Assembly: GCA_964602975.1 (NCBI GenBank)
Contig: CAZRTH010000001.1
Span: forward strand, 70,303 to 134,302
Reading direction: 5' to 3'
DNA: 64,000 nucleotides
Source of the DNA: an uncultured Candidatus Saccharibacteria bacterium
GTDB lineage: Bacteria > Patescibacteriota > Minisyncoccia > Phycocordibacterales > JBBTRF01
In this document: positions 5,426 through 57,901 of the stretch, in pieces
Layout: the number at the start of each line of letters is the position of its first letter
Position numbering within the stretch: position 1 is the stretch's first letter
Translations under genes and position numbers: made by a program
Notes under the pieces: generated by a model
The model's input: the letters and a program-made list of their open reading frames with translations, nothing else
Databases searched by the model: none
Told to the model about the DNA's origin: nothing

Positions 5426-7081
5426 TTACTTCCCCTGCGCCGCCTCTAGCTGAATATGGAAGGTCGAACCCTTACCTTCGCCAGGTGATTCCACCCAGAC
5501 CCTGCCTCCCTGATGCCCTTCCACCATCTGCTTCACGACATACAAGCCGAGACCGGTACCGGAAACGTTGGTCGAGATGCCATTCTTGGCACGGCTAAAT
5601 TTTGCGAACAACTTCTCGATGTTTTCCGCGGAGATACCGACGCCAGTGTCTTTCACGGAAATATCGATACAGTTGCTAGAGTTTCCCTGTCCACTCGCGC
5701 CTATTGGTGTCACTCGTGTTCCTCGCGTTACCTTCACGGACACTGAACCCTTCGGTGTGTACTTGATCGAATTATCGACAATATTGGTGATCGCCTGCTT
5801 TATCTTCCCCAGGTCGATCCGCGTCATGAATTTTTCAGTGCGATCGAAATCCGCGGTCAAAGTGATGCCTCGCTTCTCCGCGTTTGGCTTCAATTCATCG
5901 CAGACTTGCGAGACGATCGCCCCGACATCGGAGACGACAAAGTCGTACTTCATTTGACCCTGCTCGATACGGGAGATGTTGAGGAAGTCGTCCACCATGA
6001 TCGCCATGCTGCTGCTGGATTGCAGGATGATGTCGACAACCTCTCGGAGCTCTTTCGAAAGCGGGCCGAAATTGCCTTCCATTATCAGAGAGGAGTATCC
6101 TTTGATCGCGGTGATAGGCGCGCGGATCTGATGCGACGCGATAGACAAGAACTCGGACTTCAGCTGGTCGAGCTCTTTGAGGCGATCGTTTGCTTTGGCG
6201 AGGTCTTTGGCAAGCGATTCGATGCGCTCGCGGGTGGAGACTTCTTTAATAACGCTACGAATTAGCAGTGTTCCGAAGACAACTACAACAAGTAGGACGA
6301 AGATGTTGATAATCTGGTCGAGGTTATTGGTAGAAAGAAATACTTTTACCAATAGTACTATCCATAGCGAGAAAGTGATGATTTGAGTCGCAACAACCTT
6401 CATATCAAAAAGATGGTGACGTGTTATAGCGTAACCGATAGAGAAAACCATAATGACGGTGAACACTGGCCCTAACCAGATGTATTGGTAATTACCAACA
6501 AATGGGAGGAATAGATTAAATACCATTCCTAAAAGAAAGGCGAGGGATGTTCCACCGATAATAAAATTGAGTTGCAGACGTTCCTCATAAGACTTAAATA
6601 ACCTGTATTTCTTAAAGAAGATGTAATATGAAATTGACACATACATCAAAAAATACATTGAGTATGCGAAATAATGGTTGTAATCGAGTAATGCATTCTT
6701 TCCCCACTCGGCCTGCTCGATAGCTACTACGAGAAAATGACTATCGTACAGGAAAACTCCGACAAGCAAGAAAATTGGCAACAAGATCAGGAGATTCCTA
6801 AAACTAAACCTAAAATTATTTTCTAAAAATGCGATTGCGAAGTAGAGAAAAAAGGCTGGAATCGCTGCAGCAGCAATGTAGTACACATTAGCTGTAAACA
6901 GGGATCTGGAGAGGTTATGGTCTAGGATAAAAACGGCTAGGCCGAGTGCCCATACGGCTACCGAGAAGACAAACGCAGAATAAATGACGTTTGTAGCTGT
7001 CTTCTTTCCAAAGAAAACGAAAAGGGAGAGAATTGTGTTAATACCGGCCGTAATAAACAGAAGCGATGATTGAAAACCCAT
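5426..7081 (-). CDS. sensor histidine kinase with multi-pass (approx 8 TM) N-terminal membrane domain
   Basis: 551 aa; long hydrophobic N-terminal half, coiled coil, H-box SIASHQIRAPITAIKGY, HATPase_c G-boxes (GTGLGLYVVKQMVEGHQGGRVWVES). Confidence 0.85.
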   Translation of the reverse strand: MGFQSSLLFITAGINTILSLFVFFGKKTATNVIYSAFVFSVAVWALGLAVFILDHNLSRSLFTANVYYIAAAAIPAFFLYFAIAFLENNFRFSFRNLLILLPIFLLVGVFLYDSHFLVVAIEQAEWGKNALLDYNHYFAYSMYFLMYVSISYYIFFKKYRLFKSYEERLQLNFIIGGTSLAFLLGMVFNLFLPFVGNYQYIWLGPVFTVIMVFSIGYAITRHHLFDMKVVATQIITFSLWIVLLVKVFLSTNNLDQIINIFVLLVVVVFGTLLIRSVIKEVSTRERIESLAKDLAKANDRLKELDQLKSEFLSIASHQIRAPITAIKGYSSLIMEGNFGPLSKELREVVDIILQSSSSMAIMVDDFLNISRIEQGQMKYDFVVSDVGAIVSQVCDELKPNAEKRGITLTADFDRTEKFMTRIDLGKIKQAITNIVDNSIKYTPKGSVSVKVTRGTRVTPIGASGQGNSSNCIDISVKDTGVGISAENIEKLFAKFSRAKNGISTNVSGTGLGLYVVKQMVEGHQGGRVWVESPGEGKGSTFHIQLEAAQGK

Positions 7082-7092
7082 TTGTCGTGTTA

Positions 7093-7995
7093 TTATTTTT
7101 CCGCCACAATCACCGTATGTACCTTGAGTGGTTCGTATAATACTAACATTTTTTCCTTTTGAAATCCTGCCTTATGTAGAAGCTCAGCGAGCTCTTCGGC
7201 TCTACGATAAATCATTGGCCAACCGATAGCGTTGGTGACAAACTTCATTTCTTTGTTGTGCACGATATTCGCCGTAATGAGCGAGCCATTAGGTTTGAGA
7301 GATTCGTGAATTGAACGAAGTGTTTCAATTGTTTTTTCGTCATCAAAATAATCTAGTAGACCGACCATCTCTACTACGTTATATTCCTCTTTTGGCGACA
7401 CGGTTTTGAAAAAATTACCGACGGTATCGTTTAGCCATCGAAACTTCTGGTCATTACCGAAAAATTCCTTAACCATCGCCTGACTATACCTCAGGGCCTC
7501 AGGATTTTTATCTAAAAAAACGGCCAACACTGGAACGGTTCCGACTGCACCAGCATCTTTAAGAGATTCAATTACTGCTCGGGCCGATCCGGAAGCAATG
7601 CTGAGTATCGAAATTTCCTCCTTTTTGACAACTAACTCCAAAAACACCTCCTTGAGCTCGCGTTTAACCAAGCGAAGGCGATTTCTAACCCCACGGGAAT
7701 TATTGCTATGAAACCAGATATGATGGGACACTTTCTGGAATAGATTTTTTGACTTGTGTGGGTGACCATTCTGATAGAGAACTTCAAGTGCCTGATGAGT
7801 AGTCGCATTCTTAATTACCTCATCGGCTGCTTCATGACTTTTCTTTATAGCATTACGAAATTTGGGTGGAATGTTATTAAGCGCAGGAATAAGAAAGAGA
7901 TTCGCGAAGGACTTGAAGAGACTATTTTTCTCGTAACCTAAGGTGTTGTCTCGGTCGGTTTTTGTTGAGGTGATTCGGTGGTTATTTTGATTCAT
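7093..7995 (-). CDS. class I SAM-dependent methyltransferase
   Basis: 300 aa; Rossmann motif I ILSIASGSARAV, acidic motif II LLDYFDD, motif LKPNGSLI; 11 nt downstream of histidine kinase on same strand. Confidence 0.7.
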   Translation of the reverse strand: MNQNNHRITSTKTDRDNTLGYEKNSLFKSFANLFLIPALNNIPPKFRNAIKKSHEAADEVIKNATTHQALEVLYQNGHPHKSKNLFQKVSHHIWFHSNNSRGVRNRLRLVKRELKEVFLELVVKKEEISILSIASGSARAVIESLKDAGAVGTVPVLAVFLDKNPEALRYSQAMVKEFFGNDQKFRWLNDTVGNFFKTVSPKEEYNVVEMVGLLDYFDDEKTIETLRSIHESLKPNGSLITANIVHNKEMKFVTNAIGWPMIYRRAEELAELLHKAGFQKEKMLVLYEPLKVHTVIVAEK

Positions 7996-8115
7996 TGCGA
8001 TGTCTAGTATAACAAAATTAAGCCCAAATTACCTGCTCTACAAGGACCTCGGGTTACGTCCATTGTTTTTGTATCAACAGCAGCACTTTTTGCCTGCAGC
8101 ATTGAAGATCCGAGC

Positions 8116-8304
8116 TTGATACGAATGGCTCGCGCGTTGTTCGACGCGGTGGTACACGGCGGAAAAGTTCAGAAGATCGCCTTGAAGACGTTTGAACAGG
8201 GTACAAAGCAGGCGAAGCAGATGGAATCTGGCAAGAAAAATGAGAAGGCAGTCACCGAAAAGGTACTCGCCGATGTGCACAAGCGTTTTTGGGACGTGGA
8301 GTAG
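8116..8304 (+). CDS. small hypothetical protein (62 aa, K/E-rich)
   Basis: ORF with GC-rich third positions in gap between methyltransferase and acyltransferase genes; no SD; weak call. Confidence 0.25.
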   Translation: MIRMARALFDAVVHGGKVQKIALKTFEQGTKQAKQMESGKKNEKAVTEKVLADVHKRFWDVE

Positions 8305-8325
8305 AGACTTGCTCCGTCTAGCCGC

Positions 8326-9057
8326 CTATCCAAGCAACTCCTTCACTCGCACCATCACCTTCCCTGCTCCGTTATGAAAATCGTCCACCGACGGCTGAGG
8401 TGCCAGTTGTCCTGCTCCGATGATTTCTTTTACTCGCATAGGAGTTCCGAAATGAATCGTCACTTTTCGACGTCGCAGGAAAAAATCTCGAGCGGTGAGG
8501 AGCGTCAAACCCTTTATCGCCACCGGAACCACCGGCGTCTGGGTGGCATGCGCAAGAAAAGCCACTCCTCCATGAGCGGTTCCTAACGCGCCGCTCGTCG
8601 TACGTCTTCCCTCAGGAAAAATACAGACGCAGCGGCCTTTTTGCAAGAGCGCGGTGAAATTTTGCAACGCATAGGCGTAGTCGTGATGGCCGGAATACAC
8701 CGGGTAGGCGCCGACCAAGTTGAATATGCGGCCGCCATAGATGTGCTTGCGCCAGCCGGAGGAGTCGTAAAAGTCTTTTTTCTGAGAGACAAAGTACATC
8801 GGAGACCAACGCCACCAAAATGGCAGGCCGACGCGCACTAGGGGGCCGTCCCATTCGCTCGAGTGGTTTGGAGCAAAGATCAGGGCCGAGGTCTCTCCTC
8901 GTGCCTTCTGAGCCTTTTGGAAGGCCACCAATTCCTCCACTCCCTCGTATTTGAGACTACAGAACAGCTTGAATACCGACAGAGCGAACAGGAAGATCAG
9001 GGATTGCAGGAGGATTGGAATGACGGAAAAGAATCGTTTTTTCACGGTGCTTGGCAT
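8326..9057 (-). CDS. plsC: lysophospholipid (1-acyl-sn-glycerol-3-phosphate) acyltransferase family protein
   Basis: 243 aa; N-terminal TM, acyltransferase motif I NHSSEWD (HX4D) and motif III FPEGRRT. Confidence 0.8.
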   Translation of the reverse strand: MPSTVKKRFFSVIPILLQSLIFLFALSVFKLFCSLKYEGVEELVAFQKAQKARGETSALIFAPNHSSEWDGPLVRVGLPFWWRWSPMYFVSQKKDFYDSSGWRKHIYGGRIFNLVGAYPVYSGHHDYAYALQNFTALLQKGRCVCIFPEGRRTTSGALGTAHGGVAFLAHATQTPVVPVAIKGLTLLTARDFFLRRRKVTIHFGTPMRVKEIIGAGQLAPQPSVDDFHNGAGKVMVRVKELLG

Positions 9058-9082
9058 TATACCACCTCTTGGGAGAGCCTGT

Positions 9083-12000
9083 TTAGAACTCGTCTAGGTC
9101 GGGATTGGTTCGGACGGTCACGGTGATCTCTGATACAGCCTTTGGCGTGCCTGTCGCTCGGCTCACACCCTTTGAGAAGACCTTGAGAGCATATCGGTAG
9201 GTGCCCTCAGTGTTGAATGGGCCAACTTTGATCGTGTTGCCGCTGATCGCCGTGCTGTATAGTTGCTGGGAGAGTACGTCGCTCGTTCCGCCGGTGCCGG
9301 ACTGACTAATGAAGTAGAAGTCATCAGCATTACCGCCGGAAATGCTGTATCGTAGTGCCGCGGCTCTGCCTTTTTGGGTGGTGATCGATGATTTATACAC
9401 GCTTGGGCTGGAAGGTGCCGCAGCCGAAGTGTTTGCGATGGAGACAGCGCCGAATTCTAGGTCGGAAGCGACCATCTCTGACGGTACCGCAGGACAGCTA
9501 ATGAGCTGCGAGCTATTCACCGCCACCGAGGAGTCCGCTACCGACACTGTTGGGAATTGACCGACCATCGCGCCGTCTATTTTGAATGAATCGGTTGGGG
9601 TCGAGACACCGGTATGGGTGACTGTGCTAGCGCCGCTTGGTGTCCAGTTGAATCGGAACGGCTGGTTGCCCTTGAAACTCCCTGTGATGTCTGCCGTCCA
9701 TGTCCAGCCATCGGGACTTGTCGATTTGGTTGGTGGATTGCAAGTGAGGCCGAGGATGCTCGAGGTCTCGCATACGCCGATACAGGAGGCGCCACCGCCC
9801 GGAGGAGGCGTATAAGTGGTTCCGCCACCGCCACCAACTGGCAGAATAGTGACAGTCGCACTCATCGTCTTCTGCTGCGCTCCGGAAGTGACAGTCATCG
9901 TACCGGTCTTGGTGCCGGCGCTTGCATAAGAAGTTGTGGTTCGATCGGCCGTGCCGGAGACGTCGCTTGACCAAGAGTAGGCATAGGTACCGGTACCGCC
10001 CGAAACAGTGACCGTCCACGTGATGGCATCGTTCACATATGCTGTTGCTGGGCTGCCAGTGACCGCCGCTTGGAGCTCTGGCGGTGGCGGAGCGGTGACG
10101 GTGGCGTTTGGACAAGTGACCGAGAGTGTCTGGTTGCCTGAATAAATGGTCACGCTCGCAGTCTTGGTGCCTGGAGTGCTGTATACGATCGGTGCGGTTC
10201 TGCTTCCGCCATTCAGGCCGTCGCTTCCGGTCCATGAATAGGTGTAAGTGCCATCGCCGCCGGAAGGATTCGTGCTCCAAGTAGCGATCTCATCGACTTG
10301 CGCGCCGACCGGTGCCGTACAGCTTGCGGTGATCGCTGGAACAGGTGGCGGAGGTGTAGGTGGCGTGAGGATATTGGCCGTGGATGAGACAGTAATAGTC
10401 TGGCCCGCAGAGACCACCTGTACACTTGCGCTCTTTTGGCCGGCGGATGAATATGCAACCGTCGCGCTCTGAGTGAAGCCTGCGAGGCTCTGACTACCGC
10501 TCCATGAATAAGAGTAGGTACCATCGCCACCCTGAGGCACTGCTGCCCAAGTGATCGGCTCGCCAACATATGCGGTAGATGGATTTGCCACGATATCTAC
10601 ATTCAAAGCTGGCGGGGTGACCGGCGCTGGGGCGACGGAAATATCTGGACATGTCTTGACGAGGGACTGCTCGCCGGAGAATATCGTAACAGTGGCTCCC
10701 TTGGTACCCGCCGTAGGATAATTGATAGAAGTTTCGGTGCCTCCGCCATTCAAACCGTCTGTGCCGGTCCATGAATAGGTGTAGGTGCTGTCGCCGCCTG
10801 AAGCCGACACGGACCATGTCGATATTTGCAAAGCAATAGGGTTTGTCGGAACCGTACAAGTAGCGGTGATCGGTGCTGGGGGCTCTGGCGGAGGAGGCGG
10901 TACAATTGCAGGCTGGATCACCGCCTGAGCACTGACCGTTTTGAGTAATCCGCCGGAAATAACCTCCACAGTAGCGGTCATTGTTCCGGCTGTTTGGTAT
11001 GAAATTGTCGCGCTCGGGGTGAAGCCGGCAAGACTCTGGCTGCCGCTCCAAGAGTATTCATATGAGCCATCTCCTCCTTCAGGCACAGCGGACCAAGTGA
11101 TCGGCTCTCCCACGCGGGCAGATGGCGGACTCGCGACAACGACCACTTCAAGAGGTGGCAAAGGCGGCGTGCCGACACTGATGTTTGTACAAGGCACGAC
11201 AAGCGTCCTGCCGCCCGACGATATCGCGACGCTGGCAAACTTGATACCCGCAACGCTGTACACTTTCGGTGCCGATGTTCCGCTACTTGCGAGAGAGTCC
11301 GATCCAGACCAGGAATACGTAAAGGTACCTGTTCCTCCGGAAGCCGTAGCACTCCATGTGGCGACTTGGCCTGTGATGGCACCCGTCGGAGAGATACACG
11401 AGCCGGCAATATCAGGAAGTTCAGGATCAGGATTCGAAGGGACTGGCACGTCAAACTGGACCCAGCCAAGCACGTCTGAACCCCAGGCATATCCGGCATA
11501 TCGGCTGTCGCTGTTCAGCTGCACGCCGTAGTTGCCGCTTGCTGTAATACCGCTCAGGCTGACCCATCCGCCCCAGCCACCTCGTGGGTCAGGGTTGGTT
11601 GCAGTATAGGTTGTTCCTGCGGCGTCGGAACATGTCGAAGGGCTCGAGGCTGCTCCACAAGCACGTACCCAGCCGGAAAGTCGGCCGGTGGAAGCATCGA
11701 CTCGGGCGTTCTGGCGCACCGTTCCGGGCGCCACTGTACTCGATGGCATTGAGTCGGTCGCGAGACCGCCGAATTTGATCCAACCGATATTCGCAGCCCA
11801 AACATAGCCGGTGAGATTTCCGTAAATATCTCGGTTCACGCCGTATTCGCCGCTAGGAGCCGCTTCGTTGTTGCTGCTAAAGCTGAGCCAGCCGACAGTC
11901 GATGACCAAGCCCAGCCTGCCAGTGCTGTGGGGATAGCGAAGGTCGAGCCAGGAGTGCTGTAGCCGTTGGTATCAACAGGAGTTGGATTAACTTCTTCAG

Positions 12001-15000
12001 AAGTCGGAGCTGGTGAAGCCGTGGCCTCGACGGGTGTTTGGGTGGTCTGAGCTGCCGGATCGGTCACCGAGAAGCTGAAGGTTACGGATGTCAGAGGAGT
12101 GCCTGCATCGTACATGAGTACGGTTAACCCCGCGTTATTGAAAAGTGGCGTGGCGCTAGTGGTGTCGATACGGAGAGTGGCAGTACAAGACGGGCTCGGA
12201 GTACAAGGTGCGTTCATGAACGAATACGTCGTGCCCGCAGGCATCGTGCTCCCCATCGTAAAGGTGACCGGCTTCCCCGCTCCGGTGCTCGTTTTTTGCA
12301 CAGCGATTGAAACATATGCAGGAGAACCTCTTGGTACGGTTACCGGACTGTTGGTGGTAGCTGAAATGGTGAATGATTCCGCTCCGTTGGCCGGAGCAGA
12401 GGCGACATGGAAATTGAAGAGAAGATCGGTGCTATTGGCGTTGCCTGCAGTATCGCTACAACGAACATAGTAGCTACGGTAGCTGCCGTTTGTCAGGCCG
12501 GTGAGCGTCGCAGAATGAGTTTTGCCGCCATTGCTCGCAGTGAGGGTCGAGGTCATAGCCGAGTATGGCGTACCGGATGGATTGGTGTAGGTTGTAGCGT
12601 ACTTGCAAGTAGCCGATTCATCAGTATCCAAAGAGATGAAGGTACTCGTTGTGCCGGCAGGAAGCTCGGTGAAGCTCGATGGTGGTAGCGGCGGCGTCAC
12701 TCGGGTGCGTACTGGCGGCATTCTGTCTACGCCAGCCAGAACCGTCACTTTCGCCACTTCGTACGCAAGAGTGGTTGGCCCCGTTCCCGCAGGCAGGTTT
12801 GTTAGATTGGTGAGAGAAAAACGATCTGGACCGTCATAAAAACCAGTCATCAGACGGTACTCTCCTGGCGGCAGAGTGTTGGTAGGAGTTTTAAAGGTAA
12901 ATGTTTCGGATCGATCACCGCCGGACCACGTTGAAGGATATTGTGAGAACGTCAGGTTCGGATAGCCCATGTCGTTGGACCCAATGACGAGAGAGTTGTC
13001 GGCATTGACGAGAAAACTGAACTGGTTCCAATTCTTCTCGGTCGGACCGCCACGATAATGGTAGGTGACAGTGAATATTTCCCCCTGTCTTGTAGTGATA
13101 GTAGCGGGTGTTGCCGGCAAAATGCTCACAGCCGTGACTTGGCGAGTCGGGCCCGAAGTCGGGCAAGCACCGAGTGCGCAGCCGCCGCTTGCAGGAGGAA
13201 CAACGGCTACCGTCACGTTTCCGCCGGTATTCGTGAGGTTCGCTTTTGCCAGAGCACCCTGGCTGGCATTGTAGTAGCTACCGCTACCGCTCGATTGCAG
13301 CCTCACCGCTCGGACCATGTAGCGTGAAAGTCCCGAAGAGACAGAAGGGTCAGTGAAGGTTGTCGCAGTGATCGGACTAGTCGTGAGACGAGCGAAAGCG
13401 CCATTTCCTAGAGCCCGATACACGTGATATCCGACAATACCGACATCAGGAGAAGCTGTCCAGCTTACATTGACTGAATTTACGCCGCCAGAGCTGAGCA
13501 CGATGCTTGTCGGAGGCAGAACAGTATGGAGGTGGAGCGTCGGATCACCCATGAGCGCTGCTGCCGACGCACGTTTGGTTCCACTGGCAGTCCATTTATA
13601 GAGAGGCGCATACGACTGTGCGGGATCGATGTTTTGTGACAATCGAGTGCTGTCTCCAAGCGTTTCACCGAGGCCCATGCGATAAAACTTCCAATTATAA
13701 AAACCTACCCAAGCGCTGCTCAAACCGTATGCCTGGTCGGCAATAAAAGAGCGCATGAGGTTATCGGAAAAATCCCAATCTCCAAAATAGCTGCCGAACA
13801 TCTGATTGAAAATGCCGGGGCTTTTGCCACTTGCTACGATATCATTGGTAGCGATTCCATTGTAAATACCAGCAGGATAGCCAGGGCCAGCGAAGCGAGT
13901 CCACAGGTTTCCATTTCCATCACCAAGAGAAGAACTAGAGAAGAAGCCGTTCTGTCCGAAAAAGGCGACGAAGTCCTTCCATGTGTCCTGCTCGTGCAAG
14001 AAAGCGAACAGATCGGAAGTGTAGCCAACACCTACTGTCGACATGCCTCCGACCCTAAAGAGATGGTCTTTGTTCAAATATTGGCGCAGAAGATCTTTCT
14101 CGTTCTTTGGCAAGAAAGCGGTCATGTTCGCGAAGTCGACTCGGCCAACTGCCAGCTCCACCTTTGAAGGAATCGTGTTCTGGTCGAATTTCCCGTCTCC
14201 CGGAAAATTGGCGGTTCTGGTGGGGATCGTCGGACAGACAAGTTCGACTGGGCATCGTGACGCACTAGATTGCGTATCGGTCCATGTTCCGTCTATGTCT
14301 CCATAGAAAACATCTGCCGGCCAAGCGCCATTATGATCATCGTGCCCGTCCGACGCCGCGAATCCTGAGTATGGCACCGGTACGTGGCCGAACAGGAACA
14401 CATGCGATGTTACTGCCGGATCCTCGAGATATTTTTGAGCAATGAGATTTCGTACAAGCGAAGGCGTGTCCGCCCTAGATACATCAAGCCGCACGACCGT
14501 CCAACCATCGCCCTCGAGGTCATCCTTCAGACGGTCCAACTCGAAAGAAAGGTCCGACGCGTATGTATTGTCCACTACCAAGACCACTCGGCCGCGACTA
14601 TCCACCAAAGGCGCTTTGTTGCCGGCCAGCACATAGGCTTCGTCGGTTCCCCCGCCATTGATCGTTTTGACCACGCGATACTCAAATACCGAACCGGGAC
14701 CGGCTGATGTGTCCAGATAGGTCAGGGGCGTTGGTCCAGAAATAGTACCGATGATCGAACCCCACGAGTCTGCGTTCTTTGCCTTTCGATATATATCGTA
14801 TTTTTGCGCGTTTGGATCGGCACTCCACTGCAGGAGGATGCCGGACGGACTTTCGTTCGCAGAAGCGCTCAACAGAACAGTGCTTGGCAGCACAGCATCA
14901 CCTGCGTTTGCCGTAGACGGTATGAAATATCCAGAGAGAAGCAGAAGACCGGCCACCACGACAGAACCAAAGAATGCCTTTGTTCTTTGAGCGGTTGGTA

Positions 15001-18985: not shown

Positions 18986-19552
18986 TTGAGTATAGAGAAC
19001 TTGCTGGTCGTCGCCAGCATCCTGACCGCTTTCGTCACCTACGTGTTCCTGATTAAAGGTCTGCTTGGGCAGGGTGTCGAGCAAAGTTTCGCCACCTGGT
19101 TTTTGTGGGCGATGCTCGACCTTATCGCCGCTCTGAGCATGATGTTCAAGGGCGGCAACTACCAGCTCGCCCTTTTCTACACATTCTTCGGGACGTTCAT
19201 CTCCGGCCTTCTGCTCTACAAGAAGCAATTCAGCTGGACACGGCTGGAAACGACAGTGACCGGCTTGGTGATAGCCTGCATCGTGATCTGGGCCACAAGT
19301 GGCGACCGTGCCGCAACCATTGCAAGCACTACTGCCATGGCCATTGCCACAGCACCACAGCTCGTCGCTGCTTGGAAAAAGCCGATGACCGCCGGAAGTC
19401 CCTTCATCTGGGGAGGCTATACCGTCGCCAACATCTTCTCGTTCTTCGGAGGCAAAGCCTGGACAGTGGAAGAACGCTTCTATCCGGGAGTCTGCGTTGT
19501 CCTCTGTGTGTGGCTAACCGTCCTCACTAGATCCCAGCTTCGGCGGGCATGA
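18986..19552 (+). CDS. hypothetical polytopic membrane protein (188 aa, 5-6 TM, TTG start)
   Basis: hydrophobic helices throughout; consensus promoter upstream. Confidence 0.6.
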   Translation: MSIENLLVVASILTAFVTYVFLIKGLLGQGVEQSFATWFLWAMLDLIAALSMMFKGGNYQLALFYTFFGTFISGLLLYKKQFSWTRLETTVTGLVIACIVIWATSGDRAATIASTTAMAIATAPQLVAAWKKPMTAGSPFIWGGYTVANIFSFFGGKAWTVEERFYPGVCVVLCVWLTVLTRSQLRRA

Positions 19553-19621: not shown

Positions 19622-20239
19622 TTATTTCTTCACCTCCCCTACCTTCACCTTTGGCGGGCGGACGACGCGATCGCCGAGTTTGTAGCCTTTGTTGATGACT
19701 GCGACGATTTTTCCATCCAACGACTTGCCGTCAGGGCCATTCGCGGCAGCACCGGAAAGCTCCACCATCTCAATAGCCTCCTGCTCGAGTGGGCTGTAGT
19801 CGGCGCCGAGTGGATTAAGCTCAACAAGACCGTTCTTTTGCAAAATACCGAGGATCTGCGACTGAATATGCTCAACGCCCATGCGCCAATTCTTGTCCAC
19901 CTTCTCCCAGGCTCCTTTGTTGGATCGTGCCATGTCGAAACTGTCGAGCACAGGCAGCAAGTCGAGGATGAGATCCTCGTTCGCGTATTTCACCAGCTCC
20001 TTCTGTCGTTCCTCGTCGCGCTTCCGGGCGTTCACCATATCTGCCTTTGTACGCTGCCAGCCGGTGAGATAGTCGAGCTTCTCGGCCTCGCACTTCTTCA
20101 GTTTGTCGCGAAGATCTTTAAGCTTGGCTTGGGCGCCTTTCTCGATCCCCTCTTCATTGGTGTCGACAATATCGTCAGTATTTTTGTCATTCATTGCGCT
20201 GGTCATTATACTTTTCAACCACGCACTTTGCAACGCCAT
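19622..20239 (-). CDS. grpE: nucleotide exchange factor GrpE
   Basis: GrpE signature ...DYLTGWQRTKADMVNARKR...LLPVLDSFDMA...; true start possibly Met16 (20194) because TTGCAA-17-TATAAT lies at 20233-20205 inside the first 15 codons. Confidence 0.9.
   Translation of the reverse strand: MALQSAWLKSIMTSAMNDKNTDDIVDTNEEGIEKGAQAKLKDLRDKLKKCEAEKLDYLTGWQRTKADMVNARKRDEERQKELVKYANEDLILDLLPVLDSFDMARSNKGAWEKVDKNWRMGVEHIQSQILGILQKNGLVELNPLGADYSPLEQEAIEMVELSGAAANGPDGKSLDGKIVAVINKGYKLGDRVVRPPKVKVGEVKK
20205..20233 (-). promoter_or_regulatory. sigma70-type promoter TTGCAA-17-TATAAT, 10 nt upstream of an in-frame ATG of grpE
   Basis: near-consensus hexamers on minus strand; would give a (near) leaderless grpE transcript. 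Confidence 0.45.
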
Positions 20240-20288
20240 ATGAAGTGCTACAATATACAGGCACGTCGGTTTTCGAGATTTAAAGGAT

Positions 20289-20939
20289 ATGAAACCCTAT
20301 CATTTAAGCACTCGATTCTATATTATCTTCACCCTGGTGATGCTCGTGCCTGCAGTACTCGTGGCTGAGTATCTTCAGGAGGTCATCTTGGCGCCATTGT
20401 TCGACGTGCTGTTCACCAATCTGATCTTCGACTGGCGACTCATCGAAGCTCCGGTCGCGGCGAGCGTCATCGCCCTTTCTTTTTGGGTGTATGAAGTGTT
20501 TCTGTGGAGATTTCCGCCATTCAAACAACTCCATCCGTGCCCAGACGTAAACGGTCGGTATGAGGGAATTTATATAAGAAACAAGGATCAGGACCCAAAA
20601 AAAGAAAATGACATTGTCTTTGAGATCGAGCACACATTGAGGCACATTTCCGTGGTTTGTTACAGCGAGAAGCGAACCTCACACAGCCTGGTGGCGACCA
20701 TCGGCCAAAATGGGTTCGGTCACTGGTGGGTGTTGATGATCTATCAAAATATGGCGAATGAACACTTTGTCCATCACGGGACGCCGCACACTCATGGCGA
20801 ACGAGGCGTCGCTTTTATCGAGATCAGCAAAAAAGGCAAGGCATTGCACGGCACCTACTTCACCAACCCACAAGACACCGGCGTATATGGAACTTTCCAA
20901 GTGAAATTCAAGGGCGACAAGAAATTCTACGCGCTTTGA
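20289..20939 (+). CDS. hypothetical membrane protein: two N-terminal TM helices plus ~130-aa beta-rich, His-rich C-terminal domain
   Basis: 216 aa; TM1 ~res 10-30 (FYIIFTLVMLVPAVLVAEYL), TM2 ~res 55-76; C-terminal GHWWVLMIYQN...FVHHGTPHTHGERGVAFIEI...GTFQVKFKG. Confidence 0.55.
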   Translation: MKPYHLSTRFYIIFTLVMLVPAVLVAEYLQEVILAPLFDVLFTNLIFDWRLIEAPVAASVIALSFWVYEVFLWRFPPFKQLHPCPDVNGRYEGIYIRNKDQDPKKENDIVFEIEHTLRHISVVCYSEKRTSHSLVATIGQNGFGHWWVLMIYQNMANEHFVHHGTPHTHGERGVAFIEISKKGKALHGTYFTNPQDTGVYGTFQVKFKGDKKFYAL

Positions 20940-21057
20940 TCGGAAGTTTTAGCTAAAGGATATCCACAGGGCAAGAACGCTTTTTGTTGACGGCGCCTTT
21001 CAACGGCGTACCATTATATGTAGCAGTCCTCTGAAACAATCAACCAGCTTCAGAACT

Positions 21058-21981
21058 ATGTATATTCCCGACTACTTCCTTCCGATCAACAAGAGCGGCG
21101 CCATTCGGCTGCTCCTGCTTGGCCAGCGAGACAGGACGCCCGCAGTCATCCGTGCGTTCAATGAACGATACGTTTGGAGAGATCTGCCGGACGACGTGCA
21201 ACGAATGCATTTGGCCTGCAGCCGCTGGCACACCGCACAAACAGTATGCGTCGGCGAGTCGGCTACAGTGCTCCGCTTCCTCTGGTGGCACATGAACGAT
21301 ACCGGCATCCACAAAGGCTTGGAACGAGCCGGCACTTTGGTAAGCAGACGGGTGACCTTGAAACCGGAGATGCTGGGATGGCCGCTCGAGCAACTGATCG
21401 ACCCGGCTCACGTGCCTGAGCGCACCAGCCAGCTCGCAAGCGCCGCGATCCTGCATCACCCTGACCGACACCCTCGGCTGAAAGGAGTGCGTTTCCATAT
21501 CGACGCCACCTACGAAGCGCTCGATGATTGGAATGGCGGATACACTGATCCGGCAAAAGTTCCCGCGGTCGGGATCGACCCAACGATCAAACGACAAGCC
21601 GAAACCTTCTTGGCAATGCTACGAGGCGAGGCATCGTCCTATGAGCCCCAGCAGGTGGAAGACTTCCCGTTCTCATTCCTCGTCCGCGGGACGCCGACGA
21701 TCGCCGAAGCCGCCGAACGCTGGCCGAATTTGGCCGACCATGAGAGCAATCGCCTGAAAGCAGTCACGAATGCCTGCGAAGAATGGCGGGTGTCCAGAAC
21801 GATCAGTAGTTACGACCATCGGATCGTTCAGGCTACCGCCATGTATGCCATGATCCAGGGCTATTCGCCCCAAAGGCTCAAAGAATCCGTCGAGCACCCT
21901 GAAGTGGTTGCCAAGAGCTGGCCCCAGTTCTGGCGCTTTCTCCAGTTCGCCCACGGCCAAGTAGCCCAACGGCAGAGCTGA
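21058..21981 (+). CDS. hypothetical protein (307 aa) in locally GC-elevated segment
   Basis: longest ORF; antisense ORFs look spurious; no recognised motif; hairpin GCAGGC-tcac-GCCTGC at ~22013-22028 downstream. Confidence 0.45.
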   Translation: MYIPDYFLPINKSGAIRLLLLGQRDRTPAVIRAFNERYVWRDLPDDVQRMHLACSRWHTAQTVCVGESATVLRFLWWHMNDTGIHKGLERAGTLVSRRVTLKPEMLGWPLEQLIDPAHVPERTSQLASAAILHHPDRHPRLKGVRFHIDATYEALDDWNGGYTDPAKVPAVGIDPTIKRQAETFLAMLRGEASSYEPQQVEDFPFSFLVRGTPTIAEAAERWPNLADHESNRLKAVTNACEEWRVSRTISSYDHRIVQATAMYAMIQGYSPQRLKESVEHPEVVAKSWPQFWRFLQFAHGQVAQRQS

Positions 21982-22051
21982 GACACTCAAGTTGCACATC
22001 ATCAACACATCGCCGCAGGCTCACGCCTGCGGCTTTCTTACCTCGTTTTTT

Positions 22052-22321
22052 CTATCCCATCGACTTTTTTCCCGCTCCCGCACCTATCAACAACAACTTT
22101 TCTCTTCGGGACATTTTCTTGATCTCCCATTCCCTTTTCAATCCGCGACTCAACGTCCGAAGCTTTTCCGAATACACTAGACTCACCGGCCTGCGCGATT
22201 TTGTATATCTCGCGCCCGTCTTTAGATCATTGTGCACCCGCACTCGCCTCTCTACATCATTCGTCGAGCCGGTGTACAAGGTCCCATCGCGACATTTCAA
22301 TATATACACATAATACACCAA
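22052..22321 (-). CDS. GIY-YIG nuclease family protein (short, ~89 aa)
   Basis: VYYVYILKCRDGTLYTGSTNDVERRVRVHN... GIY-YIG core; start likely TTG/GTG at ~22321-22316 just after TATACT -10 (22336-22331); ORF track extends to 22402. Confidence 0.7.
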   Translation of the reverse strand: MVYYVYILKCRDGTLYTGSTNDVERRVRVHNDLKTGARYTKSRRPVSLVYSEKLRTLSRGLKREWEIKKMSRREKLLLIGAGAGKKSMG

Positions 22322-22567
22322 GGTAGTCACAGTATAGCAAAATAAAAAAAGCGCCAAGGGCGGAAACCGTCCCCCCTTGGCACCTGAGACACAATCTCTC
22401 ATTGATAGGCAGGCATCTCTACCGCGCTACCAACCAGCTGTCCTTAAAAGAGCTCACCTTGGCGCTGGCTGCGCCACATTGCTCGGGCCCAACTGGCCAA
22501 AATCATCCTAACAAACCTGAAGCGCACGCACAAGCCATCCAGCTTGGAGCCTGCAGCGAAATGTGCA

Positions 22568-22677
22568 GGAAAGACGAAACAGCATTCTGAGGGAACTGCG
22601 GAGGCCGACGGGCCGAGCCGGAGCAAAATTTCAGCAGAAATTTATGCGTATCCCGAAGAATGCTGTTTCGTCTTTCC
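22568..22677. repeat. perfect 21-bp inverted repeat (GGAAAGACGAAACAGCATTCT ... AGAATGCTGTTTCGTCTTTCC) with 68-nt loop, 10 nt downstream of rpsI stop
   Basis: arms 22568-22588 and 22657-22677 are exact reverse complements. Confidence 0.8.
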
Positions 22678-22686
22678 CTACTTATT

Positions 22687-23097
22687 TTATCGCTTGCTCC
22701 ACGCTGGAGACTTTCGTGCCTTCTTCAAACCGAACTTCCTTCGCTCCTTTGCTCGAGGATCTCGCTTCAAAAAGCCTTCCTTCTTTAGGGACTTTCGGAG
22801 CTCGATGTCGTGTACGATCAACGCTCGGGCGATGCCATGTCGAAGCGCCTCGGCCTGAGAGTGGATGCCGCCACCGGAGAGCATCGCAGTCACCTTGAAC
22901 TTCTCCGCGGTCTTCGCTAGAGCATCCATAGCGATCTGCTGCAATTCAGCTGTCGGGAAATAGGTATTCAAATCCTTCTCATTCAATGTGAACGAGGTCT
23001 TGCTCGCAGGAGTGATGCGGACGCTCGCGATGGAGGTCTTGCGTCGGCCAATGCCCTGGGTGTACTTTTTGTCTGATGCGGTAGTGTTTGATGTCAT
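22687..23097 (-). CDS. rpsI: 30S ribosomal protein S9
   Basis: 136 aa; C-terminus ...KARKSPAWSKR typical of S9. Confidence 0.93.
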   Translation of the reverse strand: MTSNTTASDKKYTQGIGRRKTSIASVRITPASKTSFTLNEKDLNTYFPTAELQQIAMDALAKTAEKFKVTAMLSGGGIHSQAEALRHGIARALIVHDIELRKSLKKEGFLKRDPRAKERRKFGLKKARKSPAWSKR

Positions 23098-35742: not shown

Positions 35743-36579
35743 TTAGCACAACGTCGCCAACTCCTCCTTCACTTCGCTGATCTTGCCGGTCGAAAGTCCC
35801 ATTGAGCTCAATATGGAGGTGTCAGCACTGAGCGATTTACACAACACAATACCCCTCTTGAACAATTCCTGGCGATGACTGTCGGTGAGAGAGTTGATGC
35901 AGGTGAGCGGATGAAGACCGCTTTCTTCGATCCATTGTTCGAGATTGCCTTTTTCTGGGTAGTTCCAACCGATCATTTTCAGGCCGGCACAGCGACCGTA
36001 GTCGATGGCGGTTTGGGTGAATTTTGTGTTGGTGATCAAACAGCCCTCGCCGAAGGCGCGCTTCTTGCCGCCGTAGTTGAACAACTGCGAACGCAAGTCA
36101 TCGAAGCGCGCCTTCACGTACAAGGCCACTTTCAGATCGGTCTTGAAGCCCAGTTCATTGTGAAATTTCAGCTCACAAAGAACAAGCTGAGCATCGTTAT
36201 ATGCCACCACATCCACTTCATGCGGGACGCAGGCGCCCTGCACTGTTTGATCGGTGAGCGCTTGATACCCTTTGGCACGAAACACCTCGGCGATGAACTT
36301 CTCAAAAGGAAAGCCGGTGGGTCCGAGACCGATGAGGGCGCGGCGAAGAGAATACTTCGCCGCCACCGGCTTTTGATGTTCGCGGAGCAGATTGAAAGCG
36401 TGTCGATAGATATCGCTGGTCGTGATACCAGGCACTATTTCTCGCTCGACGTGCTCGACGATCCTCGCGATCACGGCATCGCTAGTACCGACTCGCTTGA
36501 GCGAATACGCCAATTTCTCGGGACGGAAAGACTCGCTGGTGCCATCCGCCTTCAGAATATTGATCTGCTGAGAAGACAT
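35743..36579 (-). CDS. ATP-cone domain fused to Mrr-like (PD-D/ExK) restriction-endonuclease domain
   Basis: 278 aa; N-terminal ATP-cone-like ~90 aa (ILKADGTSESFRPEKLAYSL...), C-terminal ...GFPFEKFIAEVFRAKGY...VDVVAY..LCELKFH. Confidence 0.6.
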   Translation of the reverse strand: MSSQQINILKADGTSESFRPEKLAYSLKRVGTSDAVIARIVEHVEREIVPGITTSDIYRHAFNLLREHQKPVAAKYSLRRALIGLGPTGFPFEKFIAEVFRAKGYQALTDQTVQGACVPHEVDVVAYNDAQLVLCELKFHNELGFKTDLKVALYVKARFDDLRSQLFNYGGKKRAFGEGCLITNTKFTQTAIDYGRCAGLKMIGWNYPEKGNLEQWIEESGLHPLTCINSLTDSHRQELFKRGIVLCKSLSADTSILSSMGLSTGKISEVKEELATLC

Positions 36580-54669: not shown

Positions 54670-54803
54670 AAGGAGACTTTCATTCCGTCAATTTGGATCT
54701 CAAAGAACCCGCCCCCGACATCCGGAGGTAAATGTTTTATACAGTAAAAAACGCGCCAGGGCAAGCGGTTGACGAAAGAGTGAAAGACACACAAAATGGA
54801 TAC

Positions 54804-55481
54804 ATGCATACGTTCGAAGTCGAAGTTAAGGCCCTTTTAGGAACAAATGAAGCAGCTGAGGAACTCATCAAAGGCATGCGCGCTTCAGATCCCGAGTTCA
54901 AAGAGCTTGGGAGACATCGCCAACTCAACCATTATTTTATCGGAAATGACCTCGCGTCACTTTCTCAAAAACTCAGTGGCCATGGAGAACCTTCAAAAAA
55001 CAGTTTGCTGAAAGATCTTGTTCCTCGTGCGCACAATTGTTCGGTGCGTACACGGCTGGCAGACAAGGACGCGATTTTGGTGATCAAAGCATCGGTTGAT
55101 GACACCAGTAGCGCGAACGGCACAGCCCGCATGGAAATTGAGGCTAAGACTCCAAACTTAAGCCTAGAGCAGCTCGATCAGTTGGTACTTGCGTCGGGGT
55201 TTGCCTATCAGGCCAAATGGTCTCGCGAGAGAAGAGAATTTTTGTACCGTGGACTGAATGTCAGTATTGATAAAAATGCCGGTTACGGTTTCCTCGCTGA
55301 ATTCGAGATGATAGTAAATGATCCCACAAAGATCGATTCAGCAAAAGACCTTCTGCGATCCACTCTGAAAGAACTAGCAATATCAGAGCTGCCGCAAGAT
55401 CGGCTCGAGCGAATGTTTGCCCACTACAACAAGAATTGGCAGACATATTACGGTACCGAGAAGACTTTTATTGTTGACTAG
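54804..55481 (+). CDS. CYTH-domain (triphosphate tunnel metalloenzyme/CyaB-like) protein
   Basis: starts MHTFEVEVKAL (ExExK), later ARMEIEAKT and GFLAEFEMIV acidic strands; ORF track begins 24 codons upstream. Confidence 0.6.
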   Translation: MHTFEVEVKALLGTNEAAEELIKGMRASDPEFKELGRHRQLNHYFIGNDLASLSQKLSGHGEPSKNSLLKDLVPRAHNCSVRTRLADKDAILVIKASVDDTSSANGTARMEIEAKTPNLSLEQLDQLVLASGFAYQAKWSRERREFLYRGLNVSIDKNAGYGFLAEFEMIVNDPTKIDSAKDLLRSTLKELAISELPQDRLERMFAHYNKNWQTYYGTEKTFIVD

Positions 55482-55491
55482 GAATCATCGA

Positions 55492-55974
55492 TTACAACTT
55501 TTTCACCTCCCTCAACTCCTGCTTCAAGATCTTCGCGGAATATTCGGCATTGGAGGGTCGGTCGAAAAGAAATTTGCCTCGGAACTTTTGTCCGGCGAGG
55601 AAAAACGGAAACCAGTGGATATCGTCAGACCACATTTGTTCAAAAGGGATATGGTCGACATGGAACCATTGCGGCTTCATTTCTTCGGTCTCGATCGGTT
55701 CGCCTCTGAATTCTGTGACGCGAAAAATATGGACCTCGAGTACGGCCGGATCGCTCTCAAACGAAAACTCGAGTATCCCCTGCTTCTCCATTTTCACCGC
55801 CTCAATTCCAACTTCCTCTTTTAGCTCGCGCGTCGCGGCTTGCTCAAGTGTCTCTCCCTTCTCAATTTTTCCACCAAAACCATTCCATCGTCCCACGCCA
55901 AAACGCCGCTTTTTCATGCCAAGAAGCACTTTTGGATGCTGATAGATCATGCAAAGCGTGAGCGGGATCTTCAT
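55492..55974 (-). CDS. Nudix hydrolase (MutT-like)
   Basis: 160 aa; Nudix box GGKIEKGETLEQAATRELKEEVG. Confidence 0.85.
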   Translation of the reverse strand: MKIPLTLCMIYQHPKVLLGMKKRRFGVGRWNGFGGKIEKGETLEQAATRELKEEVGIEAVKMEKQGILEFSFESDPAVLEVHIFRVTEFRGEPIETEEMKPQWFHVDHIPFEQMWSDDIHWFPFFLAGQKFRGKFLFDRPSNAEYSAKILKQELREVKKL

Positions 55975-55998
55975 GTCTTTTATTCTATCAGAGCGACG

Positions 55999-56021
55999 AA
56001 AAATCCGCTCGTGCGGATTTT
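55999..56021 (-). terminator. rho-independent terminator after tRNA-Ala (AAAATCCGC-acga-GCGGATTTTT)
   Basis: 9-bp stem then U-run on minus strand, directly 3' of the tRNA. Confidence 0.6.
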
Positions 56022-56025
56022 GTTG

Positions 56026-56098
56026 TGGACCCTACAGGACTCGAACCTGCCACCCCCTCATTGCAAATGAGGTGCTCTACCAGATGAGCTAAGGGCCC
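56026..56098 (-). tRNA. tRNA-Ala (anticodon UGC)
   Basis: hand-folded cloverleaf: GGGCCCT/AGGGTCC acceptor with G3:U70 Ala identity pair, D-loop ATCTGGTA, anticodon loop TTTGCAA, T-loop TTCGAGT, discriminator A; CCA not encoded. Confidence 0.88.
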
Positions 56099-56218
56099 GT
56101 CTTTCCGACCGTCGCATCATACCAAAAAGAACCTAAAAAAACAACGGGGTAGACACTAAAGTAATATTCACAGAAATCATGTACAAAAAGCTAATAAAGT
56201 TGTATGGTGGAGACATAA

Positions 56219-57187
56219 ATGAAATCAATTAATAAAGTTTTTTTCAGCATTATTAGTTTATCAATATTTGCACTTCTGCTTTCTCTTACAAACACGGCAG
56301 ACGCTTATGTCTCTGTTAAAGGTTATTATAAAAGTAACGGTACTTACGTTTCTCCACACGTTCGAAGTAACCCAAATGGACTAAAGTCTGATAACTACAG
56401 TTACACTCCGAGTCAAGGCGCATACAATAAGACATACGGAACAAGAGGTGCGGAATGGGATACCCCGACCTATATAACAGATCCAAGTTACTACCAAGGA
56501 AAGTCTTTATACGAGTCTGGAAATAGTAATTCTGGAACCTACTATCAATACCCGACGACTCCGACTTGCCCGATAAATTCGTACTACGATGGTGTATCTT
56601 CTTGTAAGTGTAATTATGGTTATATTGTAAGTGGAGGTAGTTGTGTTAATGCTAATAATTATTGCTCGAGTCAGCTTGGGGTAATGTCCCAATACAACAG
56701 TTTATCCAATAAGTGTGAGTGTATGAGTGGCTACGAGCAAAGTGGTTCAACTTGTGTTTATAAGATTCGAGACTACTCAAATTCCTCTGGATATTCGAGT
56801 ATGCCCTCTTACAACTGCCCATTAAATTCGCACACATCACCAACTGAGCCAACGAAGTGTGATTGTGATTCCGGATATCAAGTTAATTCAAGCAAGACGG
56901 CCTGCGTTCTCCTAAACAATAATGTGAATAATCAAGCTTGCATCAACTCATATGGCGCCCATAGTAATTGGGATGGTACAAAAACGCCTACAGGTTTAAT
57001 AAATTGCGTCTGTCAGGCAGGGTATACTTGGAATAATTCAAAGAGTGCCTGCGTTGCAATCATACCTCAACCACAATATCAAAATGACGAACTCATTGGA
57101 AAAAATTATTACTTAAATAATCGTACCTGTGTAGGTCTTTCTGATAATCAATACTCATACTGTATTAGCTACGCATACAACCACTAA
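56219..57187 (+). CDS. secreted cysteine-repeat protein (322 aa) encoded in AT-rich DNA
   Basis: signal peptide MKSINKVFFSIISLSIFALLLSLTNTADA; four C-x-C-x2-G-Y-x(4-7)-C-V modules; canonical SD GGTGGAG 6 nt upstream of ATG, unlike neighbouring genes; N/S/Y-rich. Confidence 0.6.
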   Translation: MKSINKVFFSIISLSIFALLLSLTNTADAYVSVKGYYKSNGTYVSPHVRSNPNGLKSDNYSYTPSQGAYNKTYGTRGAEWDTPTYITDPSYYQGKSLYESGNSNSGTYYQYPTTPTCPINSYYDGVSSCKCNYGYIVSGGSCVNANNYCSSQLGVMSQYNSLSNKCECMSGYEQSGSTCVYKIRDYSNSSGYSSMPSYNCPLNSHTSPTEPTKCDCDSGYQVNSSKTACVLLNNNVNNQACINSYGAHSNWDGTKTPTGLINCVCQAGYTWNNSKSACVAIIPQPQYQNDELIGKNYYLNNRTCVGLSDNQYSYCISYAYNH

Positions 57188-57191
57188 CCCA

Positions 57192-57223
57192 CTCCCCCTC
57201 GCCAATTCTACCAAACGTTCAAC
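57192..57223. repeat. 32-bp direct repeat copy A: fragment duplicating the 3' end of ddl
   Basis: CTCCCCCTCGCCAATTCTACCAAACGTTCAAC vs 58389-58420 CTCCCCCTCGCCAATTCCACCAAATGCTCAAC (29/32). Confidence 0.8.
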
Positions 57224-57896: not shown

Positions 57897-57901
57897 AGGT
57901 A

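Follow-up and report, generated by a model that had tools for sequence, protein, structure and literature searches.

A solitary Cap15-like gene between grpE and rpsI in a Patescibacteria genome

We analysed a stretch of 64,000 nt (the window, meaning the whole stretch throughout) from an uncultured Candidatus Saccharibacteria bacterium (GenBank assembly GCA_964602975.1, contig CAZRTH010000001.1, positions 70,303 to 134,302 of the forward strand), in which three open reading frames (ORFs) lie between grpE and rpsI. A first-pass annotation made from the sequence alone had read them as an accessory or defence-like islet consisting of a 216-aa membrane protein, a 307-aa protein and a short GIY-YIG nuclease; the coordinates it gave for the three are borne out by our ORF map. 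We found that the 216-aa protein carries the profile signature of the S-2TMβ effectors (the family of Cap15, OptE and PanE), that no signal synthase adjoins its gene, and that the three genes do not share a history.

Genes and features between grpE and rpsI

The features of the interval are collected in Table 1. The gene of the 216-aa protein, which we call Cap15-like, is placed on the opposite strand within an otherwise co-directional run of rpsI, GIY-YIG, grpE, dnaK and dnaJ. Its start is separated by 49 bp from the divergent start of grpE, and 118 bp lie between it and the 307-aa gene; neither gap holds a free ORF. The promoter-like site closest to the Cap15-like gene overlaps the 5' end of the grpE ORF, and the consensus scan found a further promoter-like site preceding the 307-aa gene. 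The three genes occupy two strands, and a terminator-like hairpin parts the 307-aa gene from the convergent GIY-YIG gene. A second hairpin, which was missed by the automatic scan because its loop exceeds 8 nt, probably ends the rpsI transcript. Beyond rpsI, downstream, lie rplM, rplQ, rpoA, rpsD, rpsK and rpsM, and upstream of grpE lie dnaK and dnaJ.

Table 1. Features of the grpE-rpsI interval, in window coordinates
Feature	Position	Strand	Basis
grpE	19622-20239	-	ORF map
Second promoter-like site near the Cap15-like gene	20184-20212		Consensus scan
Promoter-like site 5' of the Cap15-like gene	20227-20254	+	Consensus scan: TTTGCA, 16 nt, TACAAT, TG before -10; consensus match only
Cap15-like (S-2TMβ family) protein gene, 216 aa	20289-20939	+	ORF map; Pfam, PADLOC and 7N34 matches
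307-aa gene, EPSP-synthase-derived family	21058-21981	+	ORF map; profile, hhalign, Foldseek
Terminator-like, GC-rich 9-pair hairpin separating the converging 307-aa and GIY-YIG genes	22012-22033
GIY-YIG long ORF, 116 aa as called	22052-22402	-	ORF map
UPF0213-type stand-alone GIY-YIG protein, ~89 aa	22052-22321	-	Pfam, PDB 1ZG2 and 1YWL matches
TATACT -10 box of the GIY-YIG gene	22336-22331	-
Hairpin resembling an intrinsic terminator (GCCAAGGG...CCCUUGGC), with a U-run after it	22340-22383	-	Read directly from sequence
Structured RNA-like element, ~110 nt: 27-bp outer stem and inner hairpins	22568-22677	-
rpsI	22687-23097	-	ORF map

The 216-aa protein is a predicted S-2TMβ effector

Three kinds of profile evidence assigned the 216-aa protein to the S-2TMβ family. 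The Pfam model PF18153 (Cap15_CD_rec) matched at 47.5 bits, against a cut-off of 31.2, with residues 84-205 (nt 20538-20903) aligned to profile positions 3-120 of 122; these residues correspond to the receptor beta-barrel domain. The PADLOC model PDLC00705, which describes 2TM effectors of the cyclic-oligonucleotide-based anti-phage signalling system (CBASS), matched at 7.3e-26 over residues 1-206, i.e. the membrane part together with the barrel, and 13 further PADLOC 2TM models also matched, 14 in all. Finally, a profile of the protein and its homologues matched the Cap15 structure 7N34 at 7.7e-5 over chain residues 1-125 of 131. Motifs common to both proteins are VP(D/N)xxGR(Y/W), S.S, Y.N and GxYFxNxQ...YGT.

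Hydropathy placed two transmembrane (TM) helices at approximately residues 8-30 (TM1) and 52-74 (TM2), with 19-residue Kyte-Doolittle windows above 1.4 at about residues 5-47 and 45-74. On these matches the protein is a predicted member of the family, with two TM helices and a cytoplasmic beta-barrel. The Cap15-type architecture, two TM helices and a beta-rich domain, had been proposed in the first-pass annotation and holds at the level of sequence profiles, not of structure. In characterised S-2TMβ members the barrel binds a cyclic dinucleotide, and this controls an oligomerisation that collapses the inner membrane (PMC12657218, PMC12657230, bioRxiv 10.64898/2026.08.10.743972).

Relatives of the Cap15-like gene

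Close relatives of the protein are rare. A search of 5.8 billion proteins yielded no more than three close homologues, at 75-100% identity, and one further homologue at 31%. A scan of genome contigs for more close loci returned the contig of locus L007 (loci on other contigs are given by their L numbers) and nothing else, and of two metagenome scans the first gave none and the second one CBASS-type relative at 28% identity.

At locus L009 the gene order is grpE, Cap15-like, GIY-YIG, rpsI, and no synthase adjoins. At L007/L010, on a Patescibacteria contig of 42% GC, a copy 75% identical to ours occupies a different context, where it follows a gene for a 148-aa DUF6879 protein without any PADLOC match. 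No cyclase was present in the 10 kb upstream of this copy. We considered the DUF6879 protein as a possible partner and rejected it, having found neither supporting evidence nor literature.

The distant relatives, at 27-32% identity, are of another kind: those at L011/L012, L013, L016 and L018 each adjoin a nucleotidyltransferase. At L011/L012 and L013 the Cap15 gene is followed by a CD-NTase gene, at L011 with an E2 gene as well, while at L016 and L018 the nucleotidyltransferase comes first. The copy from Bradyrhizobium (L017) adjoins a CBASS operon, and no nucleotidyltransferase is annotated next to it.

No synthase adjoins the Cap15-like gene

The PADLOC cyclase models matched none of the 44 other window proteins; the same models scored 1.4e-106 on the true CD-NTase of L013. 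With Pfam, no SMODS, DAC, GGDEF or mCpol-like domain was detected among the 18 unassigned window proteins. The remark in the first-pass annotation that no nucleotide-signal synthase is evident was thus upheld by both libraries. The arrangements that define the three known systems were also looked for individually. A CD-NTase in the effector operon, as in CBASS, was found neither in the window nor at L009 or L007/L010. The ORF map holds no co-oriented mCpol-sized gene (~110-150 aa) beside the effector, as in Panoptes, the presence of an mCpol model in the libraries being unchecked. A minimal diadenylate cyclase (DAC) beside the effector, as in PanDA, appears neither in the ORF map nor among the scanned window proteins. 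The Cap15-like gene is solitary: no synthase adjoins it in three independent genomic contexts.

PADLOC hits to mad2, mad3, mad8 and PDC-M43B were discarded as generic matches, coming from UvrA, an ABC transporter, histidine kinases and a methyltransferase. The sole cyclase-like fold that we saw in the window belongs to a protein with a CYTH domain, as in class IV adenylate cyclases and triphosphatases, encoded at 54732-55481 (+), 34 kb from the Cap15-like gene and with no link to it shown; the gene beside it, at 55492-55974 (-), looks NUDIX-like by eye. Elsewhere, at 35743-36579 (-), the window encodes a 278-aa protein with an ATP-cone and a restriction-endonuclease-like Mrr_cat domain.

The Cap15-like gene is intact, under selection and patchily distributed

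We compared three orthologues of the Cap15-like gene. The proportion of nonsynonymous differences (pN) was 0.11-0.14 and that of synonymous differences (pS) 0.76-0.85, synonymous sites being saturated; the corrected ratio (dN/dS), for the TM part only, where it was computable, was 0.06-0.09. The first 17 residues do not differ among the three; in L009 they take in an upstream stretch overlooked by the gene caller. The gene is intact and under strong purifying selection.

In composition it matches the rest of the genome (GC z = -0.84; GC at third codon positions, GC3, z = 0.03), and the 2-kb tetranucleotide profile does not stand out between 18.5 and 24.5 kb, with z between +0.02 and -0.97. At the grpE-rpsI site the gene is present in two of four close relatives and missing from the other two; it is absent there from L019-L024 and L027. 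We read it as a solitary, functional accessory gene for a putative effector.

The compositional outliers of the window lie elsewhere, at 6000-8500, 9000-13500 and 55500-58000 (tetranucleotide z from ~1.9 up to 3.5). They include a low-GC methyltransferase gene (7093-7995, GC 0.41) beside a histidine kinase with seven TM helices, a 1973-aa surface-type protein, and a 322-aa protein (56219-57187, GC 0.38) with a weak, sub-threshold cEGF-like match.

The three genes have independent histories

The first-pass annotation had proposed that presence and absence of the whole block be followed between grpE and rpsI in related genomes. This comparison was carried out, and the content of the interval does vary. 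Read in the direction of rpsI, the window has rpsI, the hairpin, GIY-YIG, the 307-aa gene and the Cap15-like gene (both on the opposite strand) and grpE. L009 has rpsI, GIY-YIG, the Cap15-like gene (opposite strand) and grpE, and so keeps two of the genes without the 307-aa gene. In six contigs, L019-L024, identical where compared, and again in L027, the order is rpsI, hairpin, GIY-YIG, grpE, so that GIY-YIG is the only one of the three present. Conversely, only a homologue of the 307-aa gene is found in L015 (rpsI, the homologue on the opposite strand, grpE), L014 (rpsI, four unknown genes, the homologue, grpE) and L001 (rpsI, the homologue, a 143-aa gene, RmuC).

By DNA identity of the ribosomal operon, L009, L026, L019 and L027 form a group that excludes the window, with 87-90% identity within the group and 84-85.5% to the window. 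L014, L015 and L001 are distant (67-70% for L014 and L015). Most parsimoniously, the 307-aa gene was ancestral at the grpE-rpsI site and was lost in the sister group; the GIY-YIG gene was gained in the ancestor of the clade and then kept; and the Cap15-like gene was gained once beside grpE and lost in L019 and L027, with a further copy transferred to, or from, the lineage of L007. From the gene orders across relatives it follows that the three genes were gained and lost independently and are not an operon.

The islet proposed earlier is not supported by this comparison, and neither the GIY-YIG nor the 307-aa protein matches any defence model. The description of the block as accessory cargo stands for the Cap15-like gene, with its patchy presence; it fails for the 307-aa gene, which is ancestral, and for GIY-YIG, which is found in all four readable close relatives. 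Conservation of both larger proteins as core proteins in the same context in all relatives had been named in advance as an outcome that would refute the islet, and it holds in part, for the 307-aa gene: its family occurs across Patescibacteria and in at least one archaeal contig, and distant relatives have it in the same place.

Another small mobile gene of the same neighbourhood encodes a 188-aa multi-pass membrane protein without family assignment (18986-19552, +), on the opposite strand between a conserved 120-aa ORF and grpE. L019 and L015 lack it, and a copy with 75% identity occupies a different spot in L014 (7335-7916, -), between the 307-aa homologue and rpsI; the ribosomal proteins of L014 are only 55-60% identical to those of the window.

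The 307-aa protein is a miniaturised EPSP-synthase derivative

None of the libraries scanned gave a name to the 307-aa protein, the models for AroA, the 5-enolpyruvylshikimate-3-phosphate (EPSP) synthase, scoring below cut-off (PF00275, 15.3 against 22.8 bits; TIGR01356, 21.5 against 287). Its family comprises 166 cluster representatives at E<1e-3, all of ~300 aa. Contigs with a named source are from Patescibacteria, and one (L005) is archaeal by its neighbouring genes for ribosomal proteins L7Ae, S28e and L24e. In an alignment of 70 sequences the invariant residues are K12, D46, R97, D174, D202, E229, R232, D253, R255 and K286, while those that are nearly invariant (>=90%) include S13, R17, G66-E67-S68, T70, R73, T123, Q125, E201, H228, H254, W288 and P289.

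When the family profile was compared with PDB, 36 of the 37 matches at E<=1 were EPSP synthases or the EPSP-synthase-containing AROM polypeptide, the best at 7.8e-7. HMMER gave weak colinear matches of GES-T-xR to GNSGTAIR and of TSQ to SAQ of EPSP synthase. With hhalign against E. coli K-12 AroA, HESNR paired with K340-E341-T-D-R344, DHR with D384-H385-R386, and K286 with K411; the counterparts of E341, R344, D384, H385, R386 and K411 are invariant or nearly so in the 70 family members. The N-terminal K-S...R motif was paired with AroA by eye. We take the AroA residues aligned with these motifs to be catalytic or to bind phosphoenolpyruvate (PEP) or substrate; the conserved residues of the E. 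coli enzyme that bind PEP and shikimate 3-phosphate are K22, S23, R27, R100, R124, S169-Q171, E341, R344, H385, R386 and K411.

The AlphaFold2 model of the 307-aa protein is confident (pLDDT 95.9, pTM 0.92) and almost all helical, and its top two Foldseek matches in PDB are the EPSP synthases 3RMT and 1RF4 (TM-score 0.48-0.49). Compared with EPSP synthase (AroA, PF00275), the protein has candidate counterparts of the active-site motifs in colinear order: P-x-x-K-S-x-x-x-R at the N-terminus, GES-T-xR for GN(A/S)GTAxR, TSQ for SSQ, HESNR for KETDR, DHR, and K-S-W-P for K-T-F-P. It differs in being ~120 residues shorter and in its mostly helical model, in which most beta-sheets are gone. An AroA proper passes the threshold of its hidden Markov model and has a two-domain fold of ~430 aa with six beta-alpha-beta-alpha-beta-beta units, and the 307-aa protein has neither. 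We conclude that it is a miniaturised EPSP-synthase derivative. Aromatic amino-acid biosynthesis is generally missing from the organisms in which it occurs. Since motifs that would bind PEP and substrate appear to be kept, the protein is probably an enzyme or a binder of phospho-ligands.

Elsewhere the contexts of the family are housekeeping ones: an operon with NUDIX and CobA genes, archaeal ribosomal protein genes, and one fusion to serine hydroxymethyltransferase (SHMT). In this fusion (P0076) a 708-aa protein joins the family to the SHMT domain; at L003/L004 (L003 5522-6867) the family gene overlaps the stop codon of a NUDIX gene, which itself follows a CobA/BtuR-like gene. Both may be clues to the substrate of the family. 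The 307-aa gene is functionally unrelated to the Cap15-like gene, and we rejected it as a cyclase or defence protein, given the lack of any PADLOC match and the matches of its profile and structure to EPSP synthase.

The elevated GC that had drawn attention to this gene is real: at 0.590, against a mean of 0.518 (z = 1.94), it is the highest of 52 genes, with GC3 (0.692, z = 1.13) within range. As a sign of transfer it was rejected. The excess lies mostly outside third codon positions, and four of five homologues are likewise GC-richer than their own loci, which makes it a family trait.

The GIY-YIG gene and RNA elements

The GIY-YIG protein matched Pfam PF01541 at 56.7 bits (cut-off 22.6) and, in PDB, 1ZG2 (BH0048) at 2.9e-16 and 1YWL (EF2693) at 1e-14. 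As a stand-alone GIY-YIG domain of about the 90-100 aa typical of UPF0213, it has the length class and core of the UPF0213/COG2827 proteins BH0048 and EF2693 and shows no difference of note from them; the window gene has a non-ATG start. The long form starting at 22402 was rejected, as its upstream part overlaps the terminator hairpin 22340-22383 and homology begins at 22321. The start is TTG 22321 or GTG 22318, giving ~89 aa. The TATACT box, which the first-pass annotation had seen abutting a start codon, is confirmed and lies 9 nt before this corrected start; it is kept in all four relatives, L009, L019 and L027 among them.

Every one of the four close relatives with a readable site has the gene in this position. 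Its orthologues at L009 1408-1668 (63% identity), L019 6736-6972 (72%) and L027 5587-5823 (73%) were left uncalled, apparently because the GTG or TTG start lies a few bases after the -10 box, so presence and absence taken from annotation only would mislead.

Before rpsI, a perfect 21-bp inverted repeat had been reported. We recovered it as the core of two 27-nt arms (22568-22594 and 22651-22677) of 93% complementarity; the repeat is unique in the window, with 0.01 matches expected by chance. The arms enclose the ~110-nt element of Table 1, which starts 10 nt after the rpsI stop codon and folds with z = -4.1. It is kept in L019 (6420-6535) and L027 (5420-5535), where 11 of the 47 predicted pairs show compensatory double changes; most of it is gone from L009. 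Rfam gave no match for the element. It could be a small RNA, or else serve the ribosomal-protein operon as a 3' untranslated region or stability element.

At L015 5940-6100, L001 6925-7085 and L002, the rpsI terminator and the 307-aa homologue have between them another sequence of ~140 nt, which contains GAGAAGGGGGTCGGGGAAACTCCGGTTTC. By eye its conservation between L015 and L001 looks striking; it is absent from the window and from L014. Nothing meaningful was returned by Rfam, and we regard it as a candidate non-coding RNA.

Discussion

Overall, what the first-pass annotation observed is confirmed, and its interpretation is supported in part. The explanation that we favour, with moderate confidence, is a solitary one-gene accessory module of the Cap15 family, encoding an oligomerising membrane disruptor under the control of a cyclic nucleotide made elsewhere in the genome. 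The Cap15-like gene forms a single accessory cassette with its own promoter-like site. By analogy with its family, the 216-aa protein would still act as a nucleotide-controlled, membrane-disrupting effector of the abortive-infection type, and we infer its anti-phage role and membrane killing from the same source. The ligand would come from an enzyme encoded elsewhere in the genome. It may activate the effector, as for Cap15, or repress it, as in Panoptes and PanDA. Activation is favoured because the nearest partnered relatives are CBASS-type; repression is attractive because housekeeping cyclic di-AMP (c-di-AMP) could hold a solitary toxin in check.

Several points weigh against this explanation. 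The synthase search covers 64 kb of a contig of 137 kb, along with orthologue contigs that are short, so that by "no synthase" we mean none in the vicinity. No other defence gene is present in the window, whose remaining PADLOC hits are generic ATPase, kinase and methyltransferase domains; the Cap15-like gene is therefore not in a defence island, and an immune role gains no support from its surroundings. No relatives of the gene were found in viral contigs or phage genomes. The TM region of the protein was not matched by Pfam Cap15_TM (PF23471). Its AlphaFold2 model, built from only four usable homologues, has pLDDT 43 and is too poor for analysis of fold or pocket.

Two alternatives deserve consideration, and we think both unlikely. 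The gene could encode a guard without a synthase of its own, where a housekeeping cyclic dinucleotide, e.g. c-di-AMP from an essential DAC, restrains the effector until a phage sponge or nuclease depletes that dinucleotide. Such a guard would follow the logic of Panoptes and PanDA but do without their dedicated decoy synthase. A gene that moves and persists alone in three contexts, under strong purifying selection, would suit such a role, and repression of S-2TMβ effectors by 2'3'- or 3'3'-c-di-AMP is established; the authors of the PanDA study leave the relation to non-immune DACs open (bioRxiv 10.64898/2026.08.10.743972). However, no DAC was seen in the window, and the nearest partnered relatives are CBASS-type (Cap15 gene, CD-NTase, then E2 gene). 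In addition, PanS was never found with a non-immune DAC (bioRxiv 10.64898/2026.08.10.743972), which suggests that coupling the two is hazardous.

The other alternative, to which we likewise give little weight, is a domesticated, non-immune role: a nucleotide- or stress-responsive membrane protein, such as a gated channel, beside the heat-shock operon, or a Cap15 remnant that no longer signals. The lack of a defence neighbourhood would fit, as would the fully ameliorated composition of the gene. So would its shared site in two genomes, a pattern consistent with vertical inheritance. Yet accessory or defence genes typically show just such a patchy spread over near relatives, here with loss in L019 and L027; the barrel motifs in common with 7N34 are retained, and purifying selection argues against a dead remnant. 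A three-gene defence islet, with the 307-aa protein in the signal-synthase slot downstream of the effector like the CD-NTase in L011 and L013, is largely refuted and highly improbable: the nearest CBASS relatives do have the effector followed by a ~350-aa synthase, and the scan revealed no terminator between the Cap15-like and 307-aa genes, but the former occurs without the latter in L009, none of six other contexts of the 307-aa family includes a Cap15-like gene, the 307-aa protein lacks nucleotidyltransferase motifs and PADLOC matches and models as an EPSP-synthase derivative, its gene is preceded by a promoter-like site, and GIY-YIG, encoded on the other strand, is kept in genomes that have neither of the other two genes.

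A solitary copy under selection in a minimal genome would imply signalling in trans or reliance on a nucleotide pool that is not dedicated to it. To our knowledge, few defence genes have been reported for Patescibacteria, and the Cap15-like gene adds a gene of a defence family to this group. The EPSP-synthase-derived family offers a tractable enzyme candidate in organisms whose metabolism is poorly understood. The widest claim that could be built on these findings is a speculative one, which we think unlikely. In it, a Cap15-family effector of ultra-small Patescibacteria would be uncoupled from any dedicated synthase and wired to a nucleotide pool of other purpose, for example a signal made at a distant locus or c-di-AMP of housekeeping origin; the single gene would be a Panoptes/PanDA-like tripwire, set off by phages that degrade cyclic nucleotides or soak them up with sponges. 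Separately, the 307-aa family may be an unrecognised, miniaturised, nearly all-helical enolpyruvyl-transferase-like enzyme of Patescibacteria and at least some archaea.

Comparison with CBASS, Panoptes and PanDA

S-2TMβ effectors are known in three wirings, each with an adjacent synthase, and the same fold is switched on in one and off in the others by its ligand. In CBASS the synthase is a CD-NTase and the ligand activates the effector. In Panoptes the synthase is an adjacent mCpol, and 2'3'-c-di-AMP represses OptE (PMC12657218, PMC12657230); in PanDA, described mainly in Pseudomonadota and often beside CBASS, 3'3'-c-di-AMP from an adjacent minimal DAC represses PanE (bioRxiv 10.64898/2026.08.10.743972).

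With Cap15 of Yersinia aleksiciae (PDB 7N34) the 216-aa protein has the barrel motifs PDxxGRY, S.S, Y.N and GxYFxNxQ...YGT in common, and it fits the CBASS 2TM effector models over their full length. On the other hand, it is only ~25-30% identical to Cap15, its TM region goes unrecognised by Cap15_TM, and its gene has no CD-NTase in the operon or within tens of kilobases; the gene lies outside any defence island, in a Patescibacteria host whose genome is reduced. The predicted family and architecture are also those of OptE of Panoptes (mCpol and 2TMβ), whose toxic oligomerisation is under cyclic-dinucleotide control (PMC12657218, PMC12657230), but the neighbours of our gene are the divergent grpE upstream and the EPSP-synthase-like gene downstream, with no adjoining gene of mCpol size. 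PanE of PanDA (minimal DAC and 2TMβ) is likewise assigned to the same family (bioRxiv 10.64898/2026.08.10.743972), but no minimal DAC adjoins the 216-aa gene. The solitary arrangement in Patescibacteria matches none of these three described systems, and it bears on a question raised by the PanDA preprint, namely how such effectors coexist with non-immune cyclic-dinucleotide signalling (bioRxiv 10.64898/2026.08.10.743972).

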